Counted from the stretch's first letter, positions 6,937 to 55,000 are shown. The stretch is DNA of 63,463 nt from Candidatus Niyogibacteria bacterium (GCA_016186495.1 JACPLO010000004.1:1-63463); one strand, 5' to 3'. Notes: generated by a model from the sequence alone, not told the origin. Program-made: numbers and translations.

Positions 6937-8658
6937 ATGGCAAACACTAAAAAATGGATATTGAAAAAGTCCTATCCCGCGTCTTTGATTAAAAAATTTC
7001 CCGATGAAGACGAGATTAGCCGGCAGATGCTTTTTGAACGCGGCTTAAAAACCAGGGAAGCTGGAAACAAATATTTTTTTCCCGATTATGAGCGCGATCT
7101 TCACGATCCTTTTCAGCATAAAGACATGAAAAAAGCGGCTCAAAGAATTATTCGCGCGATTAAAGAAGAAGAAAAAACGGTTATTTTTGGCGATTACGAC
7201 GCGGATGGAATGTGCGGGGCCGCTATTTTTTCAGATTTTTTTAAAAAAATCGGCTTCGCGAATTTTGAAGTGCATATTCCGGATCGTTATCAGGAAGGAT
7301 ACGGCCTTTCCCAGAAAGCGGTGGAAAAATTTATCGGATTAAAACCGGCTTTAGTGGTTATGGTTGATTGCGGCGTCACCAATTTTCAAGAAATTAAAAA
7401 ACTTCATTCTTATAACATTGAAGTTATCGTTATTGATCATCATTTGACGCCGTCAAAGCTGCCCGAAGCCTACGCGATTATTGACGCAAAAAGAGAAGAT
7501 GACGATTACCCTTATAAGTATCTTTGCGGCGCGGGAGAGGCATTCAAAACTATCCAGGCAATTTTAAAAATTGAATCTTTTGGTTTGCCGTTGGGCTGGG
7601 AAAAATGGCTTTTAGATTTAGTGGGCATCGCCATCATTGCCGATATGATGCCTTTGACGGATGAAAATAGGGCGCTTGTTTATTATGGCTTGAGAGTGGC
7701 CCAAAAGACTAAACGGCCGGGGCTTCTGGCGCTTTATCGTAAATTGAATTTGAATCCTTCTTTGATCACGGAAGAAGATATTGCTTTTTCCGTGGCGCCT
7801 CACATCAATGCCGCCGGCCGGATGGGGCGCGAAACCACCAGTTTTGATTTATTGATTACTTCATCGCTGACGGAAGCGGAATGGCTGGTGGAAAAAATTT
7901 GCCAAACTAAAGAAGAACAGCGCCGTTTGGTTGATAAAATAATTCAGGACGTCAAAAGTAAATACCAAGACCTTGATAATTTGCCTCCCGCCATCGCGAT
8001 GGGCGATCTTTCGTGGAATCCGGGAGTTTTAGGATTAAGCGCCAACCGCCTTTTGGAGTTTTTTTCCCGGCCGGTATTTTTATGGGGAAAAGGAGAAATA
8101 TCCGGCAATATCAAAGGTTCAGCCCGGAGCGCGGATTTGAACGTGATGGAAATAATGCGCGGCTTGCCTGATGATTTTTTTATTGATTTCGGCGGGCATC
8201 ATTTTGCCGGCGGTTTTAGCGTATCCTTGGAAAAAATCGCAGAGTTTGAAAAAAAAATTAACGAAATTGTTTCCAAAAAATCGCGGGATAAAAATCATTT
8301 TTTGAAAATAGAAGCGGATAAAGAATTGGATATTGAAAAAGTTAACAGCCATCTTTTTGAGAATATCAGGCGTTTCGCTCCTTTTGGCGCGGAAAATCCC
8401 GCGCCGATTTTTTGGTTTAAAAATTTAGAGCTGAAACATCTTACTGCGATGGGCAACAGCGGCCTTCATCTTAAATTATTTTTTCGTAAATCAAACGGCG
8501 AAGAATTAACCGCGGTTTTATGGTTTAAAGGAGAGCGTCCCGAACTTCAGAATTTAACAGCCGGTTCAAAATTGGAACTTTTGGCGACGATTGAGCTTTC
8601 GCGCTATAATGGCCGGAAAGAACTTCGTTTGGGAGTGGCGGATTATCGGATTTTGTAA
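6937..8658 (+). CDS. recJ: single-stranded-DNA-specific exonuclease RecJ
   Basis: DHH motifs are present: GDYDADG, MVDCG, VIDHH and GGHHFAGG (DHHA1). Confidence 0.9.
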   Translation: MANTKKWILKKSYPASLIKKFPDEDEISRQMLFERGLKTREAGNKYFFPDYERDLHDPFQHKDMKKAAQRIIRAIKEEEKTVIFGDYDADGMCGAAIFSDFFKKIGFANFEVHIPDRYQEGYGLSQKAVEKFIGLKPALVVMVDCGVTNFQEIKKLHSYNIEVIVIDHHLTPSKLPEAYAIIDAKREDDDYPYKYLCGAGEAFKTIQAILKIESFGLPLGWEKWLLDLVGIAIIADMMPLTDENRALVYYGLRVAQKTKRPGLLALYRKLNLNPSLITEEDIAFSVAPHINAAGRMGRETTSFDLLITSSLTEAEWLVEKICQTKEEQRRLVDKIIQDVKSKYQDLDNLPPAIAMGDLSWNPGVLGLSANRLLEFFSRPVFLWGKGEISGNIKGSARSADLNVMEIMRGLPDDFFIDFGGHHFAGGFSVSLEKIAEFEKKINEIVSKKSRDKNHFLKIEADKELDIEKVNSHLFENIRRFAPFGAENPAPIFWFKNLELKHLTAMGNSGLHLKLFFRKSNGEELTAVLWFKGERPELQNLTAGSKLELLATIELSRYNGRKELRLGVADYRIL

Positions 8659-8661
8659 AAT

Positions 8662-9114
8662 ATGACGGAAAAAAAATACCAGAAAAAAATTTTTATTTTT
8701 ACCGACGGCGGATCCCGCGGCAATCCCGGACCCGCGGCTTTAGGCGTGGCGATTCAAGACGAAAACGAAAATTTAATTAAAGAATACGGGGAATTTTTAG
8801 GTAAAAAAACAAACAATGAAGCGGAATATGAAGCGGTGATTTTCGCGCTTAAAAAGACCAAACATCTTTTCGGGAAGAAAAAAATAAAAGAAATAGAAGT
8901 GACGATAAAAACCGACAGTGAACTTTTGGCCAGACAATTGAACGGTGAATACAAAATTGAAAACGCCAATCTTCAGCTTCTTTTTATGAAAATCTGGAAT
9001 TTAAAAATTGATTTTGGCGCGGTTAATTTTCAACACGTGGCGCGCGAAAAAAATAAAAGAGCCGACCGTTTGGCGAACGAAATTCTGGATAAAAAAACTC
9101 TTCCGCTTTTTTGA
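8662..9114 (+). CDS. rnhA: ribonuclease HI
   Basis: TDGGSRGNPGPAA, NNEAEYEA, TDSELL and REKNKRADRLAN carry the DEDD catalytic residues. Confidence 0.85.
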   Translation: MTEKKYQKKIFIFTDGGSRGNPGPAALGVAIQDENENLIKEYGEFLGKKTNNEAEYEAVIFALKKTKHLFGKKKIKEIEVTIKTDSELLARQLNGEYKIENANLQLLFMKIWNLKIDFGAVNFQHVAREKNKRADRLANEILDKKTLPLF

Positions 9115-9126
9115 TCTAAAAATAAA

Positions 9127-10689
9127 ATGAAAGGAAATATTTTATCGGCTGCGATTTTTGGATTTATCGCGGGCGTGGGAGTCCGTTCTTTTTTTGATCC
9201 GTTGGGAAGCGCGGCGGGGTTTTTTCTTTTATTCGTTTTTTTTGCTTTGGTTTTATTTTTTTTAATTCCCCGGAAAATTTTTTTTCCGGCAGCCGCTTTG
9301 GCGCTGGCCGCGTTCAGTTTGGGAGTTTGGCGTTATGAAATTAAAGACCAAAAAAGCGTTCCAACGGTTTTGCGGCCGCGAATAAACAGCGAGGTCGCGC
9401 TGCGCGGTTTAATTATCGAGGAGCCGGATGAGCGGGAAAATAATATGCGTTTTGTTTTTCAGGCCGACAGTTTGCGGCAGAATAATCAATGGCAGGGCAT
9501 TATTTCCGGAAAAATTCTCGTTTCCACGGAAAGATATCCCGGATTTAAATACGGAGATTTTTTGGAAATAAAAGGCGTTCTTAAAGAACCGAAAAATTTT
9601 TCCGATGATTTTGATTGGCGGGCTTATCTGGCTAAAGACAGCATTTTTCTTTCAATGGATTATCCTAAAATTGAAAAACAAGGAGAAGCGGCTGGCCCGC
9701 TGTTCAGCATTAAACAAAAACTTTTTGCGCTGAAAAATAATTTTATAGCCGGAATTTCGCGCGTTTTGCCGGAACCGCATGCTTCGTTTTTAGGCGGATT
9801 GACGATCGGCGCCAGAAAAAGCATCCCTGAAAATCTGCGGGAAGATTTTAGAAAAGCCGGCGTGATCCATCTGGTGGTTTTATCCGGCTATAACGTGACG
9901 ATTATCGCTGAAAATATCGGCCGCGCCCTGGCTTTTCTGCCTTTGCCGAATTTTTTCGGCGTTGTTTTAAGCGTTTTGGTCATCATTTTTTTTGCTGCGA
10001 TGACCGGCGCTTCGGCGACAATCGTCCGAGCTTCCATAATGGCTATTTTTGTTCTTCTGGCGCGTTCCACCGGAAAAGTTTATGAAGTAACCAGGGCGCT
10101 GATGCTCGCCGGTTTTCTGATGGTTTTACATAATCCTAAAATTTTGCGTTTTGATTCTTCTTTTCAACTTTCTTTCGCGGCCACTCTCGGCCTTATTTAT
10201 TTGGCGCCGCGGCTGGAAAAATATTTCAGCTTTTTACCGAAAAGTTTCGGCTTAAGGGGTTATGCCGCGGCCACTGCCTCGGCCCAACTGGCGGTTGCTC
10301 CTTTAATTTTACATTCAATTGGCGCGATTTCTTTGGTCGCTTTGCCGGTGAATATCCTGATTTTAATGTTTGTTCCCACAACGATGTTTTTCGGATTTTT
10401 GACATGGTTTTTCGGATTATTTAACCATTTAATTAGTTTACTTTTTGCTTGGTTTGCCTGGATTTTGCTTAATTACGAACTTTGGGTGGTGAATATTTTT
10501 GCCCGGCTTTCCTGGGCAGAATGGCGGGCGCCGAATTTTTCCGCTTTTTCCGCGGTTTTGATTTACGGTTTACTGGCTTGGTTTGTTTTTAAACCGCGAT
10601 TATTTTCCGGTTTTTTCAAAAAAAAGGAATTTTCTCCGGCGCTTTGGAATAAAGAAGCGGACGAGTTTGAAATAGAAGAGATTGAATGA
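9127..10689 (+). CDS. comEC: ComEC/Rec2 DNA-uptake channel, membrane portion (DUF4131 + competence domain)
   Basis: Polytopic membrane protein with the HLVVLSGYNV competence-domain motif and an OB-like N-terminal segment. Confidence 0.85.
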   Translation: MKGNILSAAIFGFIAGVGVRSFFDPLGSAAGFFLLFVFFALVLFFLIPRKIFFPAAALALAAFSLGVWRYEIKDQKSVPTVLRPRINSEVALRGLIIEEPDERENNMRFVFQADSLRQNNQWQGIISGKILVSTERYPGFKYGDFLEIKGVLKEPKNFSDDFDWRAYLAKDSIFLSMDYPKIEKQGEAAGPLFSIKQKLFALKNNFIAGISRVLPEPHASFLGGLTIGARKSIPENLREDFRKAGVIHLVVLSGYNVTIIAENIGRALAFLPLPNFFGVVLSVLVIIFFAAMTGASATIVRASIMAIFVLLARSTGKVYEVTRALMLAGFLMVLHNPKILRFDSSFQLSFAATLGLIYLAPRLEKYFSFLPKSFGLRGYAAATASAQLAVAPLILHSIGAISLVALPVNILILMFVPTTMFFGFLTWFFGLFNHLISLLFAWFAWILLNYELWVVNIFARLSWAEWRAPNFSAFSAVLIYGLLAWFVFKPRLFSGFFKKKEFSPALWNKEADEFEIEEIE

Positions 10690-11630: not shown

Positions 11631-12185
11631 ATGAATCGTTCTGATCAGCAACTTATCGGGCATTATCTTAAGGGTAATGAAGAATCGCTTAGGATTCTTT
11701 TTCAACGATATTTAAAATTGATTTACAGTTTTACATATAGATATACGGGCAATGCGCAGGATGCCGAAGACGCCACGCAGGAGACATTTGTAAAAGCATG
11801 GCGCAATCTAAAAAAATTTGATCAAAATAAAAAATTCAAAACCTGGATTTTTGCCATTGCTAAAAATACCGCAATTGATTTTCTAAAAAAGAAAAAGGCG
11901 ATTCCATTCTCTGAATTTGAAAACGAGAAAGGAGAAAATATGATAACCGAGACGCTTGCCGATTCCTCTCCGCTTCCTCAAGAGCTTTTAGAAAAAGCCG
12001 GAATGGCGCATATGCTCAATTCGGCAATGGAGAAATTATCGCCAAAATACCGCATGATTTTATTTCTGCGCTACAATGACCATTTCAATTTTAGAGAAAT
12101 TGCGGAATCTCTCGGCGAACCGCTCAATACCGTAAAATCGCGGCACAGGCGGGCGCTTGTTATGCTGAAAAATATAATAAAATAA
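11631..12185 (+). CDS. ECF-type RNA polymerase sigma-70 factor
   Basis: Region 2 (DAEDATQETFVKAW) and region 4 (FREIAESLGEPLNTVKSRHRRA) are present. Confidence 0.9.
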   Translation: MNRSDQQLIGHYLKGNEESLRILFQRYLKLIYSFTYRYTGNAQDAEDATQETFVKAWRNLKKFDQNKKFKTWIFAIAKNTAIDFLKKKKAIPFSEFENEKGENMITETLADSSPLPQELLEKAGMAHMLNSAMEKLSPKYRMILFLRYNDHFNFREIAESLGEPLNTVKSRHRRALVMLKNIIK

Positions 12186-12230
12186 AAATATCGATACAAA
12201 TTAATAATAAAAATTAAATCACATAAAAAT

Positions 12231-12381
12231 ATGAAAAAAAATAACGCTACTTATTATTTCAGCATTCGCGTTTTTCAGCGGCGTTGCTTTTGCCCAAACA
12301 TTGCCAACCGCTGTTTCTGATATAAATGTCAAGCTCGATTGCCATTCTTGCGATGTGTGCGGAATAAACCCGCGAGCTTGA
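12231..12381 (+). pseudogene. small secreted Cys-rich peptide gene, out of frame with its ATG because of an A8 homopolymer
   Basis: ATG at 12231 is followed by 8 A. With 7 A the ATG would read MKKITLLIISAFAFFSGVAFA/QTLPTAVSDINVKLDCHSCDVCGINPRA*, a clean signal peptide with an AxA site and stop at 12379..12381. As written, the ATG frame gives an unconvincing 29-aa product. Confidence 0.35.
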
Positions 12382-12406
12382 CGAGATATAATTTTAATGC
12401 TATCAT
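12378..12406 (+). promoter_or_regulatory. sigma70-like promoter for the island kinase gene
   Basis: TTGACG (12378..12383), 17-nt spacer, TATCAT (12401..12406). A GGAGGT SD sits 6 nt before the ATG at 12477. Confidence 0.4.
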
Positions 12407-12476
12407 AGCGGCAGAATGAAAAGTGGTTTGTAGCCACTTTTCCAGTTGAAAACAAACCGAAAAATGGAGGTGTCAA

Positions 12477-13217
12477 ATGTTTGGACAGTTGACAGAGTTC
12501 ATTCTGCCGCGTATAATTAGAGTTATGGTTCACAAACGCGAAACACTCACCAAAAAGGAACAAGCGGCACAAGGCGCGTTCATGGCGAAGCTCGACATCA
12601 AGAAGCGCAAGACCGACAAGCCGGTCATCGTGGCCATTATCGGCCTCGTTGGTTCCGGCAAGAGCGCGGTGGCGCAAGAACTCGCCAAGCACATCGGCGC
12701 GACGGTTATTGAAGGCGACGACATTCGCATCGAGCTTCGCAAACAAAGCGAACGCTATGAGAAGTCGCGCGCTATCGCCGAGAACGCAGTACTCGAAGTC
12801 GTGAAGCAAGGCGGCAATGTCATTCTCGATTCCGACTTCGTGGACGATAAAAAGCGCGCGAGCGTTCGCGAGAAAGCGCGCAAGGCCGGGGTGCACCTTG
12901 TCTTCGTCCGCACCTACTGCGACCTTGATGTTATGGTGGGTCGCGTCCTCACTGCAACCTACCACAATCGCGTTGACGATTTTTTCGGCGGCGCAAAATC
13001 CAAGTGGCAAGGAAGCGAGCAATCTAAGGGCGCGGCGGTTAAAGTTCGCGAGATGTGGAGGCGCACGCCTCACCATTATCGCTGGGTCAATCAAGGCGGC
13101 GGGCAATGGAAACTCAAAAAATTTCCGTTCGCTATCTTCGCCGAGATTGACACCACGGATTCAAATTTGTGGAAGCGCGAGGTGGAGAAATGCGCGAAAC
13201 AACTCCTCACGCGGTAA
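12477..13217 (+). CDS. P-loop NTPase / kinase-like protein (AAA_33 or zeta-toxin-like fold) in GC-rich island
   Basis: Walker A IIGLVGSGKSAVAQEL, then GDDIR and ILDSDF blocks. Strong SD and G/C-rich codon usage unlike the flanks. Confidence 0.75.
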   Translation: MFGQLTEFILPRIIRVMVHKRETLTKKEQAAQGAFMAKLDIKKRKTDKPVIVAIIGLVGSGKSAVAQELAKHIGATVIEGDDIRIELRKQSERYEKSRAIAENAVLEVVKQGGNVILDSDFVDDKKRASVREKARKAGVHLVFVRTYCDLDVMVGRVLTATYHNRVDDFFGGAKSKWQGSEQSKGAAVKVREMWRRTPHHYRWVNQGGGQWKLKKFPFAIFAEIDTTDSNLWKREVEKCAKQLLTR

Positions 13218-13218
13218 A

Positions 13219-13296
13219 CCCCGTTAGAAAGTTTCATAGTCAAACTTTATTTTAAATAATTTTGTATTTAAGCCTAAAGCTGTCTTTCTAACGGGG
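13219..13296. repeat. 13-bp inverted repeat (CCCCGTTAGAAAG / CTTTCTAACGGGG) around a 52-nt AT-rich loop; member of a dispersed hairpin family
   Basis: The arms at 13219..13231 and 13284..13296 are perfect complements. The arm sequences recur at 61460..61488, with related copies at 6862..6899 and 11560..11570. Confidence 0.6.
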
Positions 13297-13565
13297 TAAA
13301 TCACGAACATGGGCGACCAAAGCGAAAGCCGAGGCCGCCCTTTCTTTTTGTTCGATTTTTGGATACATTAAATTCATAATAGTTACGCGCGATTTTCCGA
13401 AAGCGAGGGCGGCGCGGGCATTCCTCCTCCCACCTCTCCTTCCCGCGCCGCCCGAGCGGATTCGCCGAGCGAGGCGAGGCGTTATCTTTCTTCGAAATGG
13501 GTTCGCACTATTTTTAGAATATCCCGCAAAATGGCTCGCCGCTTCGCAGTGAAAATGAAATGGGC

Positions 13566-13609
13566 GGAAAAAGAAAAAGCCCTCGGCGCAATGTCGCTAT
13601 GCCGAGGGC
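13566..13609 (-). terminator. Rho-independent terminator of the 209-aa island gene
   Basis: On the - strand: GCCCTCGGC-loop-GCCGAGGGC followed by TTTTTCTTTTT, immediately after the stop at 13624. Confidence 0.75.
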
Positions 13610-13623
13610 GAACGATTTCAAAG

Positions 13624-14253
13624 CTATTTCTTGCGGACGGCCGCAAACCAGCATGATTTATCCCAGACTTCATCTCCATCGGCACAGCACAGGTCCAGGA
13701 AGCGCGTCGAGCCACGCCTGTCGAGGCATGGGGCATAGCGGAGGCCGTTTGGGCTCTTCCAAATCGAAAGAGCCACTATTAAGAAATCGCCCTGTAATTC
13801 GGGGTAATTTTCGCCAAAGGCGAGAAGTTCGTGAAGCTCGGTCGGGCGAAATCCCCTTTTATTGAGTTTGCTGAGCGCTTCGTTGGTCGAGATATCCCGG
13901 CCGAAACAGAAGAACTCCATCGTAACTTTTGCCGTTCCTTTCCTCTGGGTCGAAAAGATGTGAGAAATAATATTAGAGTCGATCGAGTCGTAATGGCCGG
14001 CCTTTACTGCATCTTTTACACTCCTTCTATAGTTCACGGGAAGGGAGACAGAGAAGGAGTTAATGTTGCCGGCGGGCTTGCCGTAAGGCGTAAACGCCTC
14101 GCGGAGAACTCGCGCGAGCGACTCGCCGTTTTGCGTCCAGCCGAGTGCGATAACGGGATTGATGTCACGTGGTAGGGCCCGCAGGACGGCCACCTGAAAT
14201 TCCACGTAGCTCCCAGTTACCTGGGAGGGAGTTTTATATTTTTTCGTAATCAT
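13624..14253 (-). CDS. hypothetical protein (209 aa), GC-rich island, no recognisable family
   Basis: Perfect SD (GAAAGGAGGAATAGCTATG on the - strand), long ORF, own terminator and G/C-rich codons. Confidence 0.7.
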   Translation of the reverse strand: MITKKYKTPSQVTGSYVEFQVAVLRALPRDINPVIALGWTQNGESLARVLREAFTPYGKPAGNINSFSVSLPVNYRRSVKDAVKAGHYDSIDSNIISHIFSTQRKGTAKVTMEFFCFGRDISTNEALSKLNKRGFRPTELHELLAFGENYPELQGDFLIVALSIWKSPNGLRYAPCLDRRGSTRFLDLCCADGDEVWDKSCWFAAVRKK

Positions 14254-14376
14254 AGCTATTCCTCCTTTCTTTTAGTTTAAATTTCGCTGCCCCATTACAG
14301 CTTTTAGAAAACAATGTAAAAGTGCTATCTTTAATTACAATTACAACAATAGCATATATAACGGTTCTTGTAAAGC

Positions 14377-14832
14377 ATGGACACCAAAATGCGTCCCTTT
14401 GCCGTATTAATATATATGGCGCGAAAAGATTTTGAACAGCTATTTTTTTATCTTAAACCGCCGGAACCGCCAACAGGGCTTTTTGACCGGATTATTCTTG
14501 CGATTAAGCGCGAACAAGAATTGCGCAATGCCAAAAGGTTGGCGTTTGAATTTCTGGTTCTTTTAGTTGTGTCGCTTGCAACCGCTCCTTTCTCCTGGAC
14601 GCTCTTTACAGGCCAAATGCGGAATTCCGGCATACTTCAGTTTATTGAAGTTGCCTTAAACGATATCGGCGTATTTTTCGCGTCGTGGCAAGAATTCAGC
14701 TTGACTATTGCCGAATCATTGCCGATTGCCGGCCTCGCTGTCTTTACCATTAATATGATATTAGCGATATTTACTCTTCGTTTGTTTCTATATAAAAAGA
14801 GATTGCTGGTCGGCTATCTCATGAAAATTTAA
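14377..14832 (+). CDS. membrane anti-sigma-factor-like protein
   Basis: Short cytoplasmic N-terminus (LKPPEPPTGLFDRIILAIKREQELR) followed by TM helices. Position is downstream of the ECF sigma. The start could instead be the ATG at 14416. Confidence 0.5.
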   Translation: MDTKMRPFAVLIYMARKDFEQLFFYLKPPEPPTGLFDRIILAIKREQELRNAKRLAFEFLVLLVVSLATAPFSWTLFTGQMRNSGILQFIEVALNDIGVFFASWQEFSLTIAESLPIAGLAVFTINMILAIFTLRLFLYKKRLLVGYLMKI

Positions 14833-14854
14833 AATTCAAAAATAAAAAATAAAA

Positions 14855-15316
14855 ATGACGGACCAAAATTTAAAAATAAAAAAAGATATTCTCAAATGGG
14901 TCATTATCGGATTGGCCGGCTTTGCGGCGCTTGTTTTGGTTTTTGGCGCGGGAGTGAAAGTCGGAACGATAAAAGCGAGATATTCCTATCGTTGGGCCGA
15001 AAATTATCATAAGAATTTTGCCGGGCCGCAAAGAGGATTTTTTGAAAATTTCAAGCGCGGTTTTGGCGACAAAGAAGATTTTATCAACGCCCACGGAACT
15101 TTCGGCTCAGTCATCAAAATTGACGGCGGCGTTATAATTGTAAAAAGCCAGGACAATGTTGAAAAAACTATTCTTGTTTCCGACAAAACGACAATCGTCA
15201 GCCGGCGCGAATCATTAAAAACCGGCGACCTGAAAGTTGACGATCAAGCGGTTATTATCGGCTCTCCAAACGAGCAAGGCCAAATTGAAGCCAAATTTAT
15301 CCGAGTGTTTAAATAA
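14855..15316 (+). CDS. membrane-anchored small beta-domain protein (paralogue of 19139..19543)
   Basis: N-terminal TM helix. The C-terminal block VIKIDGGVIIVKSQDN..ILVSDKTTI..DLKVDD..IIGSPNEQGQIEAKFIRV aligns with the 19139 product. Confidence 0.6.
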   Translation: MTDQNLKIKKDILKWVIIGLAGFAALVLVFGAGVKVGTIKARYSYRWAENYHKNFAGPQRGFFENFKRGFGDKEDFINAHGTFGSVIKIDGGVIIVKSQDNVEKTILVSDKTTIVSRRESLKTGDLKVDDQAVIIGSPNEQGQIEAKFIRVFK

Positions 15317-15318
15317 CA

Positions 15319-17127
15319 ATGGAAATGTTTTTAAAAATATCAAAAAAAATATTGCGGCATAAATTGGCTTCGGGAATAATCCTGATTTTGATTGCCGCCG
15401 GCGGTTATTGGGGTTATGCCAAAATTTTCAGCAATAACGGAACAATTCGCTATGTTGCCGTCCAAATTGAAAAAGGAACGCTTATCGTTTCTGTTTCCGG
15501 CACCGGACAAGTGTCTGCTTTGGATGAAGTTGCGATAAAACCAAAAGCGTCGGGAGATGTTGTCTGGGTCGGCGTTAAAGCCGGAGACGCGATGCGCCAA
15601 GGACAGGCAATCGCGCAGATTGACGCGACTGACGCAAAACAAGCCGTCGCCGACGCGGAACAATCGCTGGCGCAGGCGCGGCTGCAATACCAAAAAGACA
15701 AAGTCCAAGCTCCTCTTGATTTTGAAAAAGCGCTTGAGGCGCTTGAAGACGCAAAAACCGATCTGGCGTCTTCATATACCGATGTTTTCAATACGGTTTC
15801 GGATACTTATCTGAATTTGCCGGCTCTCATAACCGGGGAGAGAGATATTTTATATGAAAATGATTTAAGCGTTAATAAAAATCAAGCGAACATTGACGCA
15901 TTGCAAAACATCGTAAAACCGGTTGACGCCGGCAGGACCGCTATTCCGATATTTGCGGATAAAGCCGCCGATGATTACCAAACTGCGCGCGTCAAATACG
16001 ATACGAGCCTTTTGAATTATAAAAATATCACTCGTTATTCTAACGAAAAAGAAATTGAAGCCATACTTTCAGAATCAATAGATGCGGCAACGGCTATTGC
16101 CCAGGCGATCCAAAGCACGCTGAATTTATTTGACGCGATTATTGACTACGCCCAAACGCATTCGGTAACAATTAATCCGTTGGTGAATACGAAAAGAAAC
16201 AGCGCGTTCGGGTATTTAAACACCGCCAACAGCATGTTAAATGCGCTCCTGACGGAACAAAAATCGCTTGATTCCGCAAAAAGATTGATTCGCGACAATG
16301 AACGAAATATTGAAATTCTTAAAATCGGAAATGAATCCGGCGGCAATCCTTTAAGTCTCCAATCCTCGGCATACGGCCTTGCCGAAAAGGAACGGAATCT
16401 TGAAGAACTGAGAACCGATCTTGCAAATTACACCGTTATTGCTCCGTTTGAGGGAACAATTGCCGCGCTTAATCTTAAACGGTTTGATACTGTTTCAAGC
16501 GGCAATTCTGTGGGAACGCTTATCACTAGGCAAAAAATCGCCGAAATTTCTTTGAATGAAATTGATGTCGCTAAAGTTAAAACGGGCCAAAAAGTCACGC
16601 TGACTTTTGACGCAATTCCCAACCTTACTATTACAGGACAAGTCGCGGAAATAGACGCGTTAGGTTCTGTTTTACAGGGCGTTGTTACCTACAACGTAAA
16701 AATCGGCTTTGATACGCAGGATGATCGGGTAAAAACAGCGATGAGCGTTTCGGCCGCCATTGTCACCGAAGCAAAACCGAATGTGCTTATTTTGCCAAAC
16801 TCGGCGGTAAAATCACAGGACAAAATTAGTTATGTGGAAATTGTGGAGGGTGATGACCGGGACTTGGCGCTTGCGGCAAACGCGAGCGGAGCAATTCTTA
16901 AAAATTCGCCGCGCCAGCAGCCGGTTGAAATCGGAACAATAAGCGATGAGTTCACGGAGATTACAAACGGCCTTAAAGAAGGAGATGTAATTGTAACACG
17001 GACCATTCAGCCAACTGCCGCTCAAACTGCGCAGACGCAACAGCAATCCGGCGGTTTAAGAATTCCCGGACTTTCCGGCGGAGGAGGCGGCGGCGGATTT
17101 AGAGGCGGCGGTGGTTCTAGCCGTTAA
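15319..17127 (+). CDS. HlyD/MacA-family periplasmic adaptor with Gly-rich C-terminal tail
   Basis: TM anchor, lipoyl-like blocks (VKAGDAMRQGQAIAQID, VIAPFEGTIAAL), a long coiled-coil and a beta-barrel. Tail is GGGGGGGFRGGGGSSR. Confidence 0.85.
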   Translation: MEMFLKISKKILRHKLASGIILILIAAGGYWGYAKIFSNNGTIRYVAVQIEKGTLIVSVSGTGQVSALDEVAIKPKASGDVVWVGVKAGDAMRQGQAIAQIDATDAKQAVADAEQSLAQARLQYQKDKVQAPLDFEKALEALEDAKTDLASSYTDVFNTVSDTYLNLPALITGERDILYENDLSVNKNQANIDALQNIVKPVDAGRTAIPIFADKAADDYQTARVKYDTSLLNYKNITRYSNEKEIEAILSESIDAATAIAQAIQSTLNLFDAIIDYAQTHSVTINPLVNTKRNSAFGYLNTANSMLNALLTEQKSLDSAKRLIRDNERNIEILKIGNESGGNPLSLQSSAYGLAEKERNLEELRTDLANYTVIAPFEGTIAALNLKRFDTVSSGNSVGTLITRQKIAEISLNEIDVAKVKTGQKVTLTFDAIPNLTITGQVAEIDALGSVLQGVVTYNVKIGFDTQDDRVKTAMSVSAAIVTEAKPNVLILPNSAVKSQDKISYVEIVEGDDRDLALAANASGAILKNSPRQQPVEIGTISDEFTEITNGLKEGDVIVTRTIQPTAAQTAQTQQQSGGLRIPGLSGGGGGGGFRGGGGSSR

Positions 17128-17131
17128 CGCA

Positions 17132-17857
17132 ATGATTGAATGTAAAAACATCGCTAAAATTTACAAAAGCGGTCCGCCAGTTGGCGGAATAGAAACTCAC
17201 GCGCTTAAAAATGCTTCGTTCAAGATAGATGACGGCGAGTTTGTGGCGATTATGGGGCCGTCCGGTTCCGGAAAATCAACGCTAATGCATATTATCGGGT
17301 GTTTGGATACGCCGACCAGCGGTGAATATCTTTTAAATGATAAAAATATTTCTAAATTTTCCGATGACGAGCTTGCCGATATTCGGATGCAAAAAATCGG
17401 TTTTGTGTTCCAGTCTTACAATCTATTGCCGCGTTCGACAGTCCTGCGGAATGTAAGCCTGCCGCTGGTCTACGCCGGCGTCAAAAAAGAAGATCGCGAA
17501 AAACGGGCCAAAAAAGCCCTTAGCGCTTCGGCTTTCCCTGAGCAATTCTGGAACCATTATTCCAATCAGCTTTCCGGAGGCATGATGCAAAGAGTTGCCA
17601 TTGCCCGCGCGCTTGTCAACAATCCGGTACTGGTTCTTGCCGACGAACCCACTGGCAATCTTGACACCAAGACCGGCGAAATCGTGCTTAATACTTTTCA
17701 GCGGCTTAACTCTGAACAGAAGCGGACAATAGTGTTGATTACTCATGAACGTTATGTCGCCGAACACGCTGAACGCATTATTCAAATCCGCGACGGGAAC
17801 ATTATTGAAGACAGTCCGGTAAAAAACAGGCGGATTGCCAACCACCGTGATTTTTAA
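17132..17857 (+). CDS. MacB/LolD-type ABC transporter ATP-binding protein
   Basis: Walker [10 protein letters not shown], signature LSGGMMQR, Walker [13 protein letters not shown] and H-loop ITHE. Confidence 0.92.
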
Positions 17858-17875
17858 AACGGGAAATTAAAAAAT

Positions 17876-19090
17876 ATGAAACTAACTGATATTATTCAAG
17901 AAACCTACATCGCTCTTTCAGCCAATATTGCTCGTTCGGGTTTGACGGTTTTGGGTATTGTCATCGGCATCGGATCGGTAATCGCGATGATTTCAATCGG
18001 CCAGGGCGCGGCGGGACAAATTCAATCAAGTATTGAGGGTCTTGGTTCAAATCTTCTGACCGTGCTGCCCGGCATTGTCCAGCCCGGCCGGGGCATTGTT
18101 TCTTCCGGCCGTGGTTCTGCGCAGACGCTGACGAACGATGACACAGAAGCACTTAAACAGATTATCGGAGTCGCATATGTTTCGCCGGAGCTTCAGCGGC
18201 GTTTCCAAATAGTCGCAGCGGGCAATAATACCAATTCAACCATTATCGGAGTAATCGCAGAGTATCCGCAAGTCCGGAATGTTTCTGTTGAGCAAGGCTC
18301 GTTTATCGCGGAAAACCAGTTGCGCAGTATGGCTCGGGTGGCGGTGTTGGGGCCGACGGTTGCCAAAGATCTTTTTACCGATTCGGACCCGATCGGCAAA
18401 ACCATCCGTATCAATAAAGTCAATTTTAAAGTTATCGGCGTGCTTCAAGCAAAAGGAAGCGCGGGATTCTTTAATCCTGATGACACGGTTTTTGTGCCTC
18501 TGACCACGATGCAGAAAATACTTGCTGGCGCAGATTTTCTTTCAACAATTGCCATAAGCGTGGAAACAAAAGAACTTATGCCCCAAGTTCAAGAAGAAGC
18601 AATCGCCGTACTTGTGGCAAAACACCGCGTTGATTCTCAAAGCCCTGATTTTTCCATTGTTTCGCAAGCCGATATTCTCGGCACGCTGACGCAAGTTACC
18701 GACACATTTACTATATTTCTTGCTGCGGTTGCCGGAATTTCTTTGATCGTGGGCGGTATTGGCATTATGAATATGATGCTGACGACCGTCACGGAAAGAA
18801 CGCGCGAAATCGGGCTTCGCAAAGCTATCGGCGCCAAGAAAAAAGATATCTCAATGCAATTTCTTGCCGAAGCAATTATGCTTACTTTTCTTGGCGGCGC
18901 GGCGGGCGTCGCCCTTGGCTGGATTATCTCTATCTTAGTGGCGAATTTTGCCGGTATTACCACGCAAGTTTCTCTGCAGGCGGTTCTCCTTGCTTTTGGT
19001 GTGTCAGCCGCAATCGGGATTATCTTCGGCTATTATCCGGCAAGACGAGCGGCATCTTTAAATCCGATTGAGGCATTGAAGTATGAATGA
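17876..19090 (+). CDS. MacB-type ABC transporter permease (FtsX family)
   Basis: N-terminal TM, large periplasmic domain and a C-terminal FtsX block (TERTREIGLRKAIGAKKKDI). Confidence 0.9.
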   Translation: MKLTDIIQETYIALSANIARSGLTVLGIVIGIGSVIAMISIGQGAAGQIQSSIEGLGSNLLTVLPGIVQPGRGIVSSGRGSAQTLTNDDTEALKQIIGVAYVSPELQRRFQIVAAGNNTNSTIIGVIAEYPQVRNVSVEQGSFIAENQLRSMARVAVLGPTVAKDLFTDSDPIGKTIRINKVNFKVIGVLQAKGSAGFFNPDDTVFVPLTTMQKILAGADFLSTIAISVETKELMPQVQEEAIAVLVAKHRVDSQSPDFSIVSQADILGTLTQVTDTFTIFLAAVAGISLIVGGIGIMNMMLTTVTERTREIGLRKAIGAKKKDISMQFLAEAIMLTFLGGAAGVALGWIISILVANFAGITTQVSLQAVLLAFGVSAAIGIIFGYYPARRAASLNPIEALKYE

Positions 19091-19138
19091 TAAAAATTTA
19101 AAGGTCAAAAATCAAAATTACAATTTAAAATTAAAAAC

Positions 19139-19543
19139 ATGAAAAAATTACTTATTATTGGAATAGCAGTAATCGTGAGCGGAGGCGCGTTTTATGGAGG
19201 CATGAAGTACGCGGAAAATAAAGCTTTGTCGGATCGCCAGCAAAGGATTCAGCAATTTGGCGGCTCAAGAACGGAATTTCGCAACGGCGGATCGGGAAAT
19301 CGAATTGGCGGCGGATTTGCATCAGGAGAAATTATCGCTAAAGACAACAAAAGCCTGACTGTAAAATTGCAAGACGGCGGTTCAAAAATCATCTTTCTCT
19401 CCGATTCAACCGAAATCACAAAATCGGCGGAAGGCGCTTTGAGCGATCTTGAAATCGGAAAAAATATCTCGGTAAACGGCGCCGCTAATTCAGACGGAAG
19501 CGTTACTGCGCAAATAATTCAGTTGAAACAGCTTGCAAAATAG
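19139..19543 (+). CDS. membrane-anchored/secreted small beta-domain protein (paralogue of 14855..15316)
   Basis: Signal/TM segment, Gly-rich segment, then IIAKDNKSLTVKLQDG..IFLSDSTEI..DLEIGKNISVNG..GSVTAQIIQL. Confidence 0.6.
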   Translation: MKKLLIIGIAVIVSGGAFYGGMKYAENKALSDRQQRIQQFGGSRTEFRNGGSGNRIGGGFASGEIIAKDNKSLTVKLQDGGSKIIFLSDSTEITKSAEGALSDLEIGKNISVNGAANSDGSVTAQIIQLKQLAK

Positions 19544-22120: not shown

Positions 22121-23299
22121 ATGGATCCCATCCAAAAATCCGCGGCCGTAATCCATTATCACGAAATTGCCCTCAAAGGAAAGAATCGCGCTTTTTTTGA
22201 AAAAACGCTGATGGCGAACATTGAGCGGATGATGGAAAAAAAAATCGGAGTGCGGCGCATTTCCGGCCGTTTGTTGGCGGAAATCGCCGGCGGCCCTGGC
22301 CAGCAAAAACAAAAAGAGATTTTAAGCCGCGTTTTCGGCATAAAAAATTTTGCTTTTGCCAGAATCGCGCCGGCGGAAATTTCGGTTATCTCCGAAGCCG
22401 CCGCCTCTTTTTTTAAAAAGCCTTATCCGGCGTCGTTCAGGATTGAAGCTTCGCGCGCCGAAAAAAAATATCCTTTTACTTCCCAGGATTTAATGGAAAA
22501 AGCCGGCGCTTTTGTTCAGCAAAAAACGGGAATAAAAGTTGATTTAAAAAATCCGAAGCGTGTGATTTTTATAGAAGTGGCGGAAAACGCGGCGTTTATT
22601 TACGATCAAAAATTTTCCGGGCCGGGCGGTCTGCCGGTGGGCACCGCCGGCCGGGTGGCGGCGCTGATTTCTTCCGGTTTTGATTCGCCGGTGGCCGCGC
22701 TAAAAATAATGAAGCGGGGCGCTGAACCGGCTTTAATTCATTTCCATTCGTACCCCCGGACTTCGCGCGAATCTCTGGAGAATGCGGAAAAACTGGCCGG
22801 CGTTTTATCCCGATATAGTCCTCAACCGCTGAAATTATATCTTATCCCGTTTTTGGAAATTCAGAAGGCGATCGTCAAAAGAGCGCCAACCGCTTTTTTA
22901 ACCATTCTTTACCGGCGTTGGATGTTAAAAATTGCCGAGATGATTGCGGAAAAAATCAACGCGAAAGCGCTGGTGACCGGCGATTCCATCGGCCAAGTGG
23001 CTTCCCAGACTTTGGATAACATCTTGGCTGTTTCCGAAGCAGTCAGTCTGCCGATTTTACGGCCGCTCGCGGGCTATGATAAGGAAGAAATAATCGCGGA
23101 AGCGCGGCGTTTGGGCACTTATGAAATTTCCGCGCTTCCTTACGGCGACTGCTGCAGTCTTTTTGCCGATGCTTCGCCAAAAACCCGCGCCAGACTGGCA
23201 GAGGTCCAAAAAATTGAAGCGCCGCTTAAAGAGGAGCTTGAAAAACTGGCTCAAAAAGCGCTGGCTCAAGAGGAATTAAAAATAATTATGTTATCATAA
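22121..23299 (+). CDS. thiI: tRNA 4-thiouridine synthase ThiI (no rhodanese domain)
   Basis: THUMP region plus PP-loop LISSGFDSPVAA and GDSIGQVASQT. Confidence 0.9.
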   Translation: MDPIQKSAAVIHYHEIALKGKNRAFFEKTLMANIERMMEKKIGVRRISGRLLAEIAGGPGQQKQKEILSRVFGIKNFAFARIAPAEISVISEAAASFFKKPYPASFRIEASRAEKKYPFTSQDLMEKAGAFVQQKTGIKVDLKNPKRVIFIEVAENAAFIYDQKFSGPGGLPVGTAGRVAALISSGFDSPVAALKIMKRGAEPALIHFHSYPRTSRESLENAEKLAGVLSRYSPQPLKLYLIPFLEIQKAIVKRAPTAFLTILYRRWMLKIAEMIAEKINAKALVTGDSIGQVASQTLDNILAVSEAVSLPILRPLAGYDKEEIIAEARRLGTYEISALPYGDCCSLFADASPKTRARLAEVQKIEAPLKEELEKLAQKALAQEELKIIMLS

Positions 23300-52023: not shown

Positions 52024-55000
52024 ATGAGTAATTTAAGAAAGAGAGGCGGAATCAAGGGAAAAATTGTTTCCACTCTCTTAATAACTGCAACTACAACTAT
52101 TTGGTTGTCGGGCGCGATGATGCTTGCTCCGTTAGCGGTTCAGGCCGACGCGGTTTCTGATCTGCAGGCGCAAATTGCGTCATTGCTCGCCCAAATCAAC
52201 ACTTTGCAATCGCAACTTACAACGTTGCAAGGCGGGACAACCACAGCTGCTTGCTCATTTTCCCGTGACCTTACTTTAGGCGCGAAGGGCGATGATGTGA
52301 AATGTTTGCAGAATTATTTGATCGGTACCGGCCACTATAGTTTTAGCGGCGGGGCAACCGGTTATTTCGGTTCTGTAACTAAATCAGCGGTTAGCGCTTG
52401 GCAAGCCGCTAATGGAGTTTCCCCGGCTGCCGGATATTTTGGCTCTATTTCCAAGGCAAAATATTCTTCGGTCGCGGCAATGACTCCGACTACTCCTACC
52501 ACTCCGACTACCCCCACCACTCCGACGACGGTTGTTACCGGTTCGGGTTTGAAGGTTGAAGCGGGAGTCCAGCCCAGCGGAAGTTTGGCGCCGGACAATG
52601 CCACCAGAATTCCTTTCACGGTTGTGAAATTTACAGCCGGCAGTGCTGACGTGACTGTTGATTCATTAGTTGTTGAAAGAACTGGCTTGGCAAATGACGC
52701 CGTGTTTGCCGGAGTCGTGCTTTTGGACGAAAAAGGCGTTCAGCTTGGCGTGGCTAAGACTTTGAATTCTGTCCATCAAGCAACCTTGACGGAAGATTTT
52801 GTGGTTAAAGCCGGACAAAGCCGGACTATGACTATTGGCGGCAATCGCGCTGATACTTCCACTTATGCCGGACAGATCGCTTACCTGAATTTGGTGGGCG
52901 TTAATACTGTCGGCGGAGCGGCGGTCAGCGGCGTTCTTCCGATTTCCGGAGCCGGCCATACCGTTAACGAATCTTTGAGCATTGGTTCAGTAACCATGCT
53001 TCGCGGCGCCACTGATCCGGGCGCTAATCAGAGCAAGGAAGTTGGCCTGACCGGTTATACTTTCTCGGCGATTCGCGTTACCGCTGGATCAGCGGAAAAA
53101 GTTTATCTTGAATCAGTTCGCTGGTATCAATCCGGTTCTGCTTCCAAAGACGACCTTGCCAATCTTAAGGTTATCGCGGATGATAAGGAATATACTCCTA
53201 TGGTCAGTTCTGACGGAAAATATTACACCGCCAGTTTTGGCAATGGGACAGCCGGCATTTTGATTGACAAAGGATTTTCCAAAGATATTTCCATTAAAGG
53301 CGATATTGCCGCCGGATCAGCCCGCACTATTGCTTTTGATATTGCCAAGAGAACTGATCTTGGTTTGAAAGGAGAAACTTACGGTTATGGCTTGACCGCT
53401 CCGCAGACTAACTCTTGTGTCGGGAGCACGGGTACTGCTTGTTTCACCAATACTGAAGATCCCTGGTATGATTCCGCGATCGTGACTATTTCCGCCGGAA
53501 CAATGACTGTTTCCAATTCCACTTCCGTGGCCGCCCAAAACGTCTCCATTAACCAAGCTAATCAAATTTTAGGCGCGGTTAGCGTTGATGTCAGAGGCGA
53601 ATCAATTACCGTGGGCGCGATGGACTTTAACGTTACGCTTGGTTCGGAAGGAACAGATGCGGATGTTAACGACATTACCAGCGTTTCTTTATATGATGCG
53701 AACGGCGCGGTAGTGGCTGGTCCGGTTGACGGCAGCGCCACTCCTGACACGACCGGCGCTTCCAGCATTGGTGGCGACGGCGTGATTACCTTTACCGATT
53801 CGGTTACTTTTCCGTCCGGCGTTCATATTTACACCTTAAAAGGCAAATTAGGAACGGATATTACCAATAATGTGACGATTACCGCTTCCACTACGCCAAG
53901 CACTCAATGGACTACGGTTACCGGCCAGACCACTGGCGTAACCATTACGCCCAGCCCGACTTCAGCTATTACTTTGAGTGCGATGACCGCGAAAACCGGC
54001 GCATTGACTGTGTCTGTTTCTACTATTCCGATTGCTCAAACCGTGATTGCCGGCGCTGACCAATTCCTGTTTGCAAACTACATTTTGGATTCAACTGCTT
54101 CCGGAGAAGATGTCCGATTAACAACTATTCCTTTGGCTTATGATGTGGTAACCGCCGCCGCGACCGAACTGACCAGCTGTAAACTTTATGACGGCTCTAC
54201 GGCGGTAACAACCGGTTCAAACATTGTTAATCCATCCGAGACTGGTTCAGGAACTTCCTTTACCTTTGACGGTTCTGGTTTGGTTGTCAGCAAAGGCACT
54301 TCCAAGACCATTAGTTTGAAATGTAATGTTGCTTCCAGCATCAGCGCGGGCGATATTTTCAGATGGGGAATCAATAACGGCCAATCTTACACCGGCGCGA
54401 CCGGCGTAACCAGCGGCCAGACTATTGGTGAAACTTTTACTGATTCCATTGGCCAGGATATGACCGGCGCGACTGGCGGCAGTTTGGCGGTAACGCTTGA
54501 TACTGATAGCCCGGGCTATGTTATTGTTAATGCCGGCGCCACTGGCGTAATTCTTGGCAAAATCAGATTTGCGGCGAGTAATGAAGAAATTGATCTTAAG
54601 CAAGTTGCTTTGGAAATAACGAGCGCCGCTTCCAACACGCCGGTTGATTTAGTAGGCAGGCAAGTAACCTTATGGGACGGCTCTACTCAAGTTGGGACAG
54701 CCGTATTCCCGACTGGTGATAATGCCACTTCCAGCGTAATCACTAATTTCAGAATTCCGCGCGATGGCGCGAAAGTCCTTACGATTAAAGGTGATATTGC
54801 CGCGATGGGCGTTTCCGGACCTTTGACTGGTTCCGGCGACCTCTTAATTGTCGGTTATGACGGAAATAATGTCGGCCTTAACGGCAATTATGGAACTGGT
54901 GTTGCTTCCGGAAATACTATCAACGGCGGGACAACTGATAGAAATCCGTCAGGAGTGCGTATTATGAAATCTTATCCGACCTTGGCAAAGATTTCAGTGC

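Follow-up and report, generated by a model that had tools for sequence, protein, structure and literature searches.

A probable composite insertion at a sigma-factor locus of Candidatus Niyogibacteria: a kinase cassette beside a homologue of retroelement-diversified proteins

How did two GC-rich genes come to lie between a sigma factor gene and the membrane protein gene that normally follows it, and do they belong together? The question is raised by a 63,463-nt contig of Candidatus Niyogibacteria (the window, by which this whole stretch is meant), in which segment 12290-14260 encodes a 246-residue P-loop kinase (12477-13217, + strand) and, convergent with it as originally described, a 209-residue protein, open reading frame (ORF) B (13624-14253, − strand). 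The original prediction, made from the sequence alone, took this island for a recently acquired two-gene module from a high-GC donor. We read it as a composite insertion, at a recurrent hot spot, of two unrelated GC-rich modules circulating among Patescibacteria, namely a mobile kinase cassette (12331-13380) and a solitary homologue of the target proteins of diversity-generating retroelements (DGRs; 13569-14253, − strand), and put the probability of this reading at about 0.75. Because both parts are of known kinds, cargo of a recombinase element and a DGR target, the island is treated as a composite rather than as a new two-gene system. The protein relatives all come from metagenome bins of Patescibacteria (candidate phyla radiation, CPR), and their loci are cited by L numbers.

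The island and its insertion site

The reported flip to G/C-rich composition is real and moderate in size, at about 3 standard deviations (sd) above the contig average. The contig has 42.3% GC (600-nt windows: mean 42.3%, sd 4.4%), positions 12290-14260 have 51.3%, and the contig maximum of 56.2% falls at 12601-13200. The kinase coding sequence (CDS) has 54.5% GC, with 66% at third codon positions (GC3), and ORF B has 52.5% GC and a GC3 of 62%. Long overlapping ORFs do occur on both strands of the island; the 295-residue ORF antisense to the kinase is conserved at 75% among copies, against 93% for the sense frame, and such long opposite-strand ORFs are spurious, arising because GC content is high.

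The left flank (11631-12185, + strand) is, as proposed, an extracytoplasmic function (ECF) sigma factor gene, its product matching Sigma70_r2 (1.5e-24) and Sigma70_r4_2 (3.4e-13) in Pfam and TIGR02937 (6.5e-35) in NCBIfam. The right flank (14377-14832, + strand) encodes a 151-residue membrane protein that had been called the anti-sigma partner. The adjacency holds, this gene following the sigma gene in more than 40 relatives; the label found no counterpart, since no anti-sigma or other family model in Pfam or NCBIfam matched the protein, and an anti-sigma role is presumed from conserved adjacency only. AT-rich spacers separate both genes from the insert: 12186-12330 (+ strand), read from the sequence as host-like and bounded by the end of kinase-cassette similarity at 12331, and 14254-14376 (− strand), which holds the Shine-Dalgarno (SD) sequence of ORF B and, in a promoter scan, a promoter-like site TTTACA-N17-TATTGT (14374-14346).

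Scanning metagenomes with the sigma factor as query yielded 80 related loci (L058-L137; 46-84% identity), which were searched by tblastn with the window proteins. The order sigma factor, membrane protein, 153-residue protein (p153), HlyD-like protein is kept in more than 40 of them, and in 35 fewer than 200 nt separate the sigma gene from the membrane gene; these empty sites bear out the expectation that the pair is normally adjacent. Neither the kinase nor ORF B is encoded in any of the 80 loci. Other, unrelated inserts of 0.7-3.5 kb occupy exactly the same spot in nine loci, seven of them distinct (for example L060, L062, L064/L065, L090, L098/L099, L100, and L109), and among them are a secreted protein of 150 residues, a pair resembling thioredoxin and DsbB, a HicB-like gene, a block of 3.5 kb that includes a LexA-like fusion, and a glycosyltransferase block; gaps of 230-460 nt with small membrane ORFs are seen in four further loci. 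Since unrelated inserts recur between the two genes, the spot is an insertion hot spot. On alignment, the junction spacers proved too diverged from the relatives' empty sites to give exact breakpoints or target duplications. The evidence supports a genuine insertion of 12290-14260, compositionally foreign and horizontally acquired.

The two inserted genes were never found together elsewhere, in none of 48 kinase loci and in none of seven ORF B contexts, and each has its own distribution. The island is therefore not one module, and the proposed two-gene accessory unit dissolves into the two parts considered below.

ORF B as a DGR variable-protein homologue

In a complete DGR, an error-prone reverse transcriptase rewrites a variable repeat from a template repeat at adenines, producing a hypervariable ligand-binding surface. 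ORF B, for which no family had been recognised, belongs to a Patescibacteria family of such variable proteins. Its 84 homologues are all from Patescibacteria. ORF B has no match in Pfam, NCBIfam, PHROG, PADLOC, or the PDB sequences, where the family profile drew a blank as well; 41 family members drew nothing from Pfam, and an IMG/VR scan with the family found no relatives. The family is tied to DGRs by L138, where the gene for a 58%-identical homologue (P0014) precedes a 132-nt repetition of its 3′ end, a bAvd gene (8118-8465), and an RVT_1 reverse transcriptase gene (8502-9500). The variable repeat (7468-7599) and the template repeat (7961-8092) of L138 are 90% identical, and because every mismatch falls at a template-repeat adenine, mostly in AAC codons, the pair carries the DGR signature. 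This complete DGR (7001-9500) sits inside a ribosomal-protein operon, between the S8 and L6 genes.

Variability across the family follows the same codons. When a codon is counted if the L138 template repeat has an adenine at its position 1 or 2, mean entropy among 41 family members is 3.0 bits at the 21 template-repeat adenine codons and 1.4 at the 22 others (Mann-Whitney p = 6e-8). Aligned to the L138 variable and template repeats, residues 163-207 of the window protein (13633-13767, − strand) form a variable-repeat-like region that keeps the scaffold residues, differs at template-repeat AAC/AAT codons, and closes with an end resembling an initiation of mutagenic homing (IMH) site, GCGGCCGTCCGC. 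This GC-rich end is conserved, as is the hairpin downstream of it, GCCCTCGGC-N13-GCCGAGGGC with a T-run (13569-13621, − strand), which lies 20 nt past the ORF B stop. The 53-nt hairpin segment is 92% identical to L001-L003, against 68% for the adjoining coding sequence, and the hairpin recurs after the variable repeat in L138 and L139. The terminator originally assigned to ORF B is thus present as a hairpin and T-run, and is at the same time the family's conserved hairpin after the variable repeat; it is terminator-like and may also be a DGR target-recognition hairpin. The last ~45 codons of ORF B would then be a variable repeat whose IMH-like end and hairpin survive.

In the family alignment, a highly conserved N-terminal module of ~55 residues precedes a C-terminus made up of invariant positions interspersed with hypervariable ones. 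In an AlphaFold2 (AF2) model with a predicted local distance difference test (pLDDT) score of 86, the module is helical at about residues 10-55, and the C-terminal alpha/beta domain is confidently folded (>95 for residues 70-209). The N-terminal sequence, GTASQVTG.YVEFQ.AVLRALPRDI....A.GW..NGESLARVLREAL, also occurs fused to several other types of C-terminal domain (proteins P0076-P0084), some with tails resembling variable repeats, a pattern suggestive of one shared "handle" on DGR targets of several classes in Patescibacteria.

The assignment meets resistance on several points. No reverse transcriptase or Avd (tblastn with the L138 proteins) and no template repeat (blastn) is found in the 63-kb window, and the template repeat is likewise absent from L001, L139, L140, L146, and L147; only one of the seven sampled family contexts has DGR machinery nearby. 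Assemblies of three other sequencing runs have exactly the variable repeat that ORF B has in the window, so that no ongoing diversification is seen. The C-type-lectin fold is weakly suggested by Foldseek against PDB and BFVD (E 0.1-1, template modelling (TM) score 0.3-0.5), with no match at E < 0.05. Since reverse transcriptase, Avd, and template repeat are all missing from the contig, ORF B would be either a remote target of a DGR elsewhere or a frozen relic. Roux et al. (2021; PMC8144416) document remote targets, describe a Patescibacteria-restricted DGR clade (clade 2) whose targets lack recognisable domains, and expect CPR to hold new variants of the C-type lectin. More speculatively, one DGR located elsewhere in a genome may act in trans to diversify such solitary targets, ORF B among them.

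Set beside the targets of that clade, ORF B shares the C-terminal variable region, the adenine-only differences between repeats (in its homologue), the IMH-like end, and the hairpin, and like CPR targets it has no signal peptide, transmembrane segment, or recognisable domain. It departs from DGR targets, which are related to the Mtd/TvpA-type C-type-lectin fold, in having no machinery within 63 kb, a repeat that does not vary across the assemblies of three other sequencing runs, a lectin fold that structure search did not confirm, an N-terminal module common to other C-terminal types, and marked GC-richness in AT-rich hosts. On the strength of these comparisons, ORF B is best described as homologous to DGR targets, whether solitary or remote, and not as a component of a proven active DGR.

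An alternative is that ORF B is an ordinary fast-evolving Patescibacteria protein, occasionally captured by DGRs, whose window copy was never a target and whose hairpin is just a terminator. The six of seven contexts without reverse transcriptase, Avd, or template repeat within 5-8 kb would fit this, as would the repeat shared unchanged by the other three runs and a hairpin and T-run of intrinsic-terminator form. What makes it unlikely is that the variable positions of 41 members coincide with the adenine codons of the one known template repeat and that the window protein, keeping the invariant scaffold, differs at exactly those positions; a hairpin segment far better conserved than the coding sequence beside it and the documented existence of remote targets (PMC8144416) point the same way.

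The composition of the family bears on its origin. The solitary homologues (six of seven contexts) lie between housekeeping genes and have 58-65% GC and a GC3 of 74-84% in hosts of 35-50% GC; in L139 (7001-7639), for instance, the gene has 64.8% GC and a GC3 of 83.6% between flanks of 36.3% GC. The homologues in L138, L146, and L001 are likewise GC-rich. The exception is L147, whose homologue matches its 52% GC host. No high-GC donor was identified for ORF B, and since the family has 58-65% GC even in hosts of 35-41% GC, high GC may be an intrinsic property of it and not a donor signature. No conserved partner gene follows the ORF B homologues, the small downstream ORFs being mutually unrelated. 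Downstream of the homologue in L001 (4669-9895) and L002 (3765-8991) is a 5-kb stretch with no gene calls that may be an rRNA operon.

The kinase cassette

The main body of the cassette (12331-13220, + strand) is 82-90% identical by blastn to L004-L016 and L036, and its 3′ end (13288-13380, + strand), which includes a terminator-like hairpin and T-run at 13311-13349, is 79-88% identical to L004-L014, L036, and L055. The predicted promoter TTGACG-N17-TATCAT was recovered by scan at 12378-12406 and is kept in other copies. It is followed by a leader hairpin and U-run (12418-12442), in which five of 10 predicted pairs show compensatory changes among 11 copies and which could be an attenuator or a stabilising stem, and by an SD (12466-12470) read from the sequence. 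Promoter, ~70 nt of leader, SD, and terminator are conserved beyond the CDS (blastn and upstream alignment), and with the basic 246-residue kinase they would make up a self-sufficient expression cassette.

A second start may be encoded within the gene. A perfect TTGACA-N17-TATAAT lies inside the first 16 kinase codons (12489-12527 region), and its −10 ends 7 nt before an in-frame ATG at 12525 (M17). This TATAAT is kept at the nucleotide level even in ~60-70% identical homologues, and the L017 copy has a stop codon in the N-terminal extension, which suggests an alternative, possibly leaderless, 230-residue product.

At the 5′ edge, similarity to other cassettes stops at 12331 inside a small upstream ORF, so that the cassette begins with the last 17 codons of a Cys-rich frame (KLDCHSCDVCGI(N/S)PRA) common to the 72-residue membrane ORF upstream of the kinase in L010-L012. 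In the window, the small frame (12235-12381) reads as a signal-peptide-like sequence with a Cys-rich tail (KKITLLIISAFAFFSGVAFAQ...KLDCHSCDVCGINPRA). A run of eight adenines after the ATG at 12231 leaves this frame without an ATG of its own, and one adenine fewer would give a 50-residue product. The run is identical, with no gaps, in L144 and L145.

The ~400-nt spacer between the two genes is packed with hairpins, as reported, and resolves into four separate elements, two of which, the cassette 3′ end and the ORF B hairpin, are described above. The third is a palindromic insert (13219-13296, of which 13221-13287 falls between the two stretches aligned to other cassettes) with 13-nt arms CCCCGTTAGAAAG and CTTTCTAACGGGG (13219-13231 and 13284-13296) and an AT-rich loop, which splits the cassette just past the kinase stop and is absent from all other copies, where the 3′ segment directly abuts the stop codon; its arms occur only here in the window and elsewhere only in the same-strain assemblies L144 and L145. 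The fourth is a 145-nt GC-rich repeat (13386-13529), present once in the window, with a 12-bp GC stem and a pyrimidine-rich loop, resembling a miniature inverted-repeat transposable element (MITE). Copies of it flank the kinase cassette as inverted repeats, 92-95% identical, in L011 (5444-5616/6820-6991) and L012 (75-219/1434-1581), with partial matches in L073, L032, and L018. It may be a MITE or a recombination site; as a structured RNA it was rejected, its fold being no better than shuffles (z −1.0 and 0.0).

The kinase family has 463 matches, of which the best 120 are at least 68% identical and many 88-93%, from bins labelled Portnoy-, Gottesman-, Azam-, Lipton-, Davies-, Kaiser-, and Zambryskibacteria. 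A unit of roughly 1 kb recurs at 82-90% DNA identity (blastn) in 15 or more further genomes, on contigs labelled Gottesman-, Azam-, and Liptonbacteria, Parcubacteria, and Paceibacterota. Its contexts all differ (by rpoB, between ddl and clpP, beside transposases or resolvases), and many contigs terminate at the cassette. Copies at least 84% identical have 52-58% GC and a GC3 of 60-76% between host flanks of 33-57% GC; distant homologues match their hosts in GC. Metagenome-bin taxon labels can be wrong, which weighs against a broad reading of the carriers, and the breadth of transfer therefore rests mainly on differing contexts and GC.

Between the window and the best copies, kinase dN/dS (ratio of nonsynonymous to synonymous substitution rates) is 0.06-0.10 at a dS of 0.42-0.79, and the few other proteins that those loci have in common with the window reach identities of only 26-63%. 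These values describe a functional gene spreading horizontally, recently on the scale of host divergence and not very recently. The original claim of a recent acquisition thus holds for the horizontal part and needs qualifying for the recency, given the dS to the closest copies. The high-GC donor fares likewise by halves: for the kinase, L013, with flanks of 56.6% GC and 90% DNA identity, fits a resemblance to the donor lineage, and ORF B has no such candidate.

Genes for large serine recombinases adjoin the cassette in L011, L032, L036, and L005, and pieces of such genes do so in L004 and L012. The L011 locus runs tRNA-Ala, serine recombinase, 145-nt repeat, 72-residue ORF, kinase, inverted 145-nt repeat. 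The cassette would accordingly spread as cargo of large-serine-recombinase elements, often landing beside tRNA genes, a mode of mobilisation that we infer from these arrangements. The original statement that mobility genes are lacking is correct for the window, where no integrase, transposase (rve included), serine recombinase, reverse transcriptase, or Avd was found, and incomplete for the cassette, which elsewhere adjoins large serine recombinases. With serine-recombinase integrative elements and MITE-flanked cassettes, the family shares the L011 order and the occurrence in many contexts and genomes; the window copy differs in having no recombinase and only one repeat, so that the recombinase with attachment (att) or repeat boundaries that marks an integrase-borne island is missing, and neither a target-site duplication nor an att site was identified there. 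Lacking a recombinase and a second repeat, the window copy is read as a stranded remnant: probably immobile, its kinase gene intact and under strong purifying selection.

Could the kinase instead be a vertically inherited, extremely conserved Patescibacteria housekeeping gene of tRNA operons, GC-rich through constraint? The wide family, the strong purifying selection, and the distant homologues, which match host GC and keep the order tRNA-Val, kinase, tRNA-Ser, all speak for this. It is nevertheless quite unlikely for the copy in question, which is missing from the sigma locus of all 80 relatives and whose close kin keep a GC3 of 60-76% in hosts of 33-45% GC; noncoding promoter, leader, and terminator are conserved at 80-90%, a dS of 0.4-0.8 separates genomes whose other common proteins are far more diverged, recombinase and transposase genes adjoin the kinase at several loci, and carrier labels together with the GC pattern imply phylogenetic incongruence. 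The two views can be combined, an old resident kinase family having had one GC-rich allele turn mobile.

As to what the kinase does, its family is clear. It matches Pfam AAA_33 (PF13671) at 48.2 bits against a cut-off of 27, with weaker APS_kinase and Zeta_toxin matches over the same core; NCBIfam and PHROG gave sub-threshold kinase matches only, the PSTK model TIGR03574 reaching 18 bits against a cut-off of 290. Across 42 sequences, G56, G59, S60, G61, R84, R88, D118, S119, D120, and R156 are invariant and K62, S63, and D81 nearly so. The AF2 model (pLDDT 86) has a P-loop kinase fold with residues 1-20 disordered. Model score, motifs, and fold agree that the protein is an AAA_33-type P-loop kinase. 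Most likely it transfers phosphate from ATP or GTP to a hydroxyl acceptor; the gamma-phosphate transfer would use Walker A K62, D81-x-x-R84, and R88/R156.

The substrate is less readily read. Foldseek returned 6PF2K, the Mucorales RNA kinases 9d8a and 9drz, PSTK, APS kinase, gluconokinase, and T4 Pnk, all at probability 1.0 and at TM scores of only 0.4-0.5, with no match standing out: 9d8a, 9drz, 3a4l, 3adb, and 1ly1 score no better than 6PF2K and APS kinase. The Mucorales enzyme is a tRNA-splicing RNA 5′-OH kinase (PMC11571804). Sequence and profile searches of the PDB with the kinase and its family found generic P-loop matches only, and a literature search for this kinase in Patescibacteria found nothing. 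With the AAA_33 group of polynucleotide kinase (PNK), PSTK, APSK, and 6PF2K, which takes in the Pnk kinase domains of T4 and Clostridium, the Trl1-type RNA 5′-OH kinases, and gluconokinase, the protein shares the Walker A motif GxxGSGKS, an Asp-x-x-Arg 18-19 residues past the Walker lysine, and a lid arginine, and with tRNA-binding PSTK it shares basic extensions. It differs from the PNK/PSTK group in ~85 conserved C-terminal and 48 basic N-terminal residues without counterpart there and in that only the generic AAA_33, APS_kinase, and Zeta_toxin models reach their cut-offs; a phosphatase, ligase, or cyclic-phosphodiesterase partner is absent.

A nucleic acid is suggested by charge and by location. 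Isoelectric points across the family are 9.25-10.47 (9.9 for the window kinase), the N- and C-terminal extensions being especially basic. In 17 of 48 loci (L008, L013-L015, L018, L022, L025, L026, L029, L036, L040, L048-L052, and L057) the kinase has a tRNA gene no more than 300 nt away, where chance would give about 3%, a rough estimate, not computed, for a 1-Mb genome with 45 tRNA genes. Distant homologues among these, only 41-46% identical and of host-like GC, keep the order tRNA-Val(tac), kinase, tRNA-Ser(cga); in those labelled Saccharibacteria, the kinase stands between the two tRNA genes on the same strand with spacers of 48-150 nt. Three considerations pull the other way: no sequence or structure match singles out a substrate, the window kinase is not near a tRNA gene, and tRNA proximity could simply reflect integrase targeting of tRNA genes, which fits the mobile copies and explains the conserved tRNA-Val/kinase/tRNA-Ser order less easily.

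A nucleic-acid substrate (RNA or tRNA 5′-OH, or tRNA-bound) is thus the best single guess, and a tentative one; a small-molecule substrate is equally open, and a toxin is unlikely. A wider proposal, that this is a Patescibacteria-wide tRNA-linked RNA kinase family of PSTK/Trl1-kinase type, with basic extensions that bind RNA, normally housed in tRNA operons, of which one GC-rich allele became a self-contained, serine-recombinase-borne cassette passing from class to class within Patescibacteria, must be called doubtful. If true, it would point to an uncharacterised step of tRNA or RNA end phosphorylation or repair, worth repeated acquisition by minimal genomes.

Two modules at one locus

That kinase and ORF B were acquired together as one accessory module, a toxin/immunity or anti-phage defence pair, is very improbable. 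The genes are adjacent, convergent, and both GC-rich, the kinase has weak Zeta_toxin (25.2 bits) and PADLOC VakA (2e-5) matches over its P-loop region, and in L011 and L057 the kinase has DGR reverse transcriptase and Avd genes at a distance of 4-5 kb. Besides the failure to co-occur anywhere in the 48 and seven contexts, the closest relatives of the two proteins are very unlike in distance (93% protein identity for the kinase, 62% for ORF B), the 145-nt repeat and the lineage-specific palindrome lie between the genes, the stronger AAA_33 match spans the same residues as Zeta_toxin, and no antitoxin-like neighbour recurs beside the kinase. The DGR genes near the kinase, in two of 48 loci (L011, 10921-12274; L057, 2011-3313), probably reflect co-location in variable regions and not a functional tie.

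A toxin or defence role, which had been floated as conceivable, gains nothing from these data: the PADLOC matches are weak and limited to the P-loop (best VakA, 2e-5 and 23 bits; none for ORF B), no partner is conserved, and the kinase is under purifying selection. A Zeta toxin is unlikely, PF06414 scoring 25.2 bits (cut-off 22.3, residues 40-143) beneath the stronger AAA_33 match with no antitoxin gene alongside. The P-loop fold and the Zeta_toxin match are shared with the kinases of epsilon-zeta toxin-antitoxin systems; the window kinase differs in standing alone with its own promoter and in having no recurrent small antitoxin-type gene upstream in any of the 48 loci.

Both junctions of the composite insertion are reproduced by independent Logan assemblies from three other sequencing runs, located by exact-protein look-ups. 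L144 and L145 match window positions from 8213 and 10883, respectively, to 13537 (sigma, kinase, repeat), L143 matches 13443-18266 (repeat, ORF B, membrane gene), and L141 and L142 match 13549-19253. Identity to the window is 99.5-100%, the right junction being at 100% in L141-L143. L145, from a second strain (SRR4343430), has the same sigma and kinase layout with 13 mismatches over 2.6 kb, and the insertion therefore predates some strain divergence. The ends of the independent assemblies, 13537 and 13549, fall at the border of the 145-nt repeat, as would be expected of sequence that several genomes share. A chimeric join through repeats shared by community genomes, which those breaks, the confinement of the sole overlap of left and right tiles (13443-13537) to the 145-nt repeat, and the many kinase contigs of other genomes that end at the cassette might suggest, is very unlikely, since the left tile (sigma and kinase) and the right tile (ORF B and membrane gene) are halves of one conserved locus and the window, L143, and L144 agree at 99.98-100%; its formal exclusion rests on reads spanning the repeat.

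Elsewhere on the contig, GC also exceeds 50% at 22.6 kb, at 52-54 kb, and in the 23S rRNA. The local maximum at 22121-23299 encodes a 392-residue protein that we take, from reading its sequence, to be ThiI-like, and 52024-55680 (GC >50%) encodes a 1218-residue protein rich in Thr, Gly, Ser, and Ala whose N-terminus resembles a signal peptide and which is probably a surface protein; long antisense ORFs are absent at both. The RNA genes of the window are a tmRNA, one tRNA-Val, an L10 leader, and the 5′ part of a 23S rRNA, and Rfam searches, at the gathering threshold across the window and at E <= 1 across 12100-14450, gave no credible match inside the island.

What had been a GC-rich island of unknown function now has a concrete anatomy, and ORF B, unrecognised before, is named as a variable protein of DGR type. 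In this lineage, the short gap that separates a sigma factor gene from its partner has taken up genes repeatedly. The solitary, GC-rich DGR-target homologues found among housekeeping genes raise the questions of how common trans-acting DGRs are and why these genes are GC-rich. The more interesting by-product is a highly conserved basic kinase that moves as a complete expression cassette among very different Patescibacteria and whose family keeps turning up beside or within clusters of tRNA genes; should RNA or tRNA be its substrate, the kinase would be a new piece of RNA metabolism in minimal-genome organisms.

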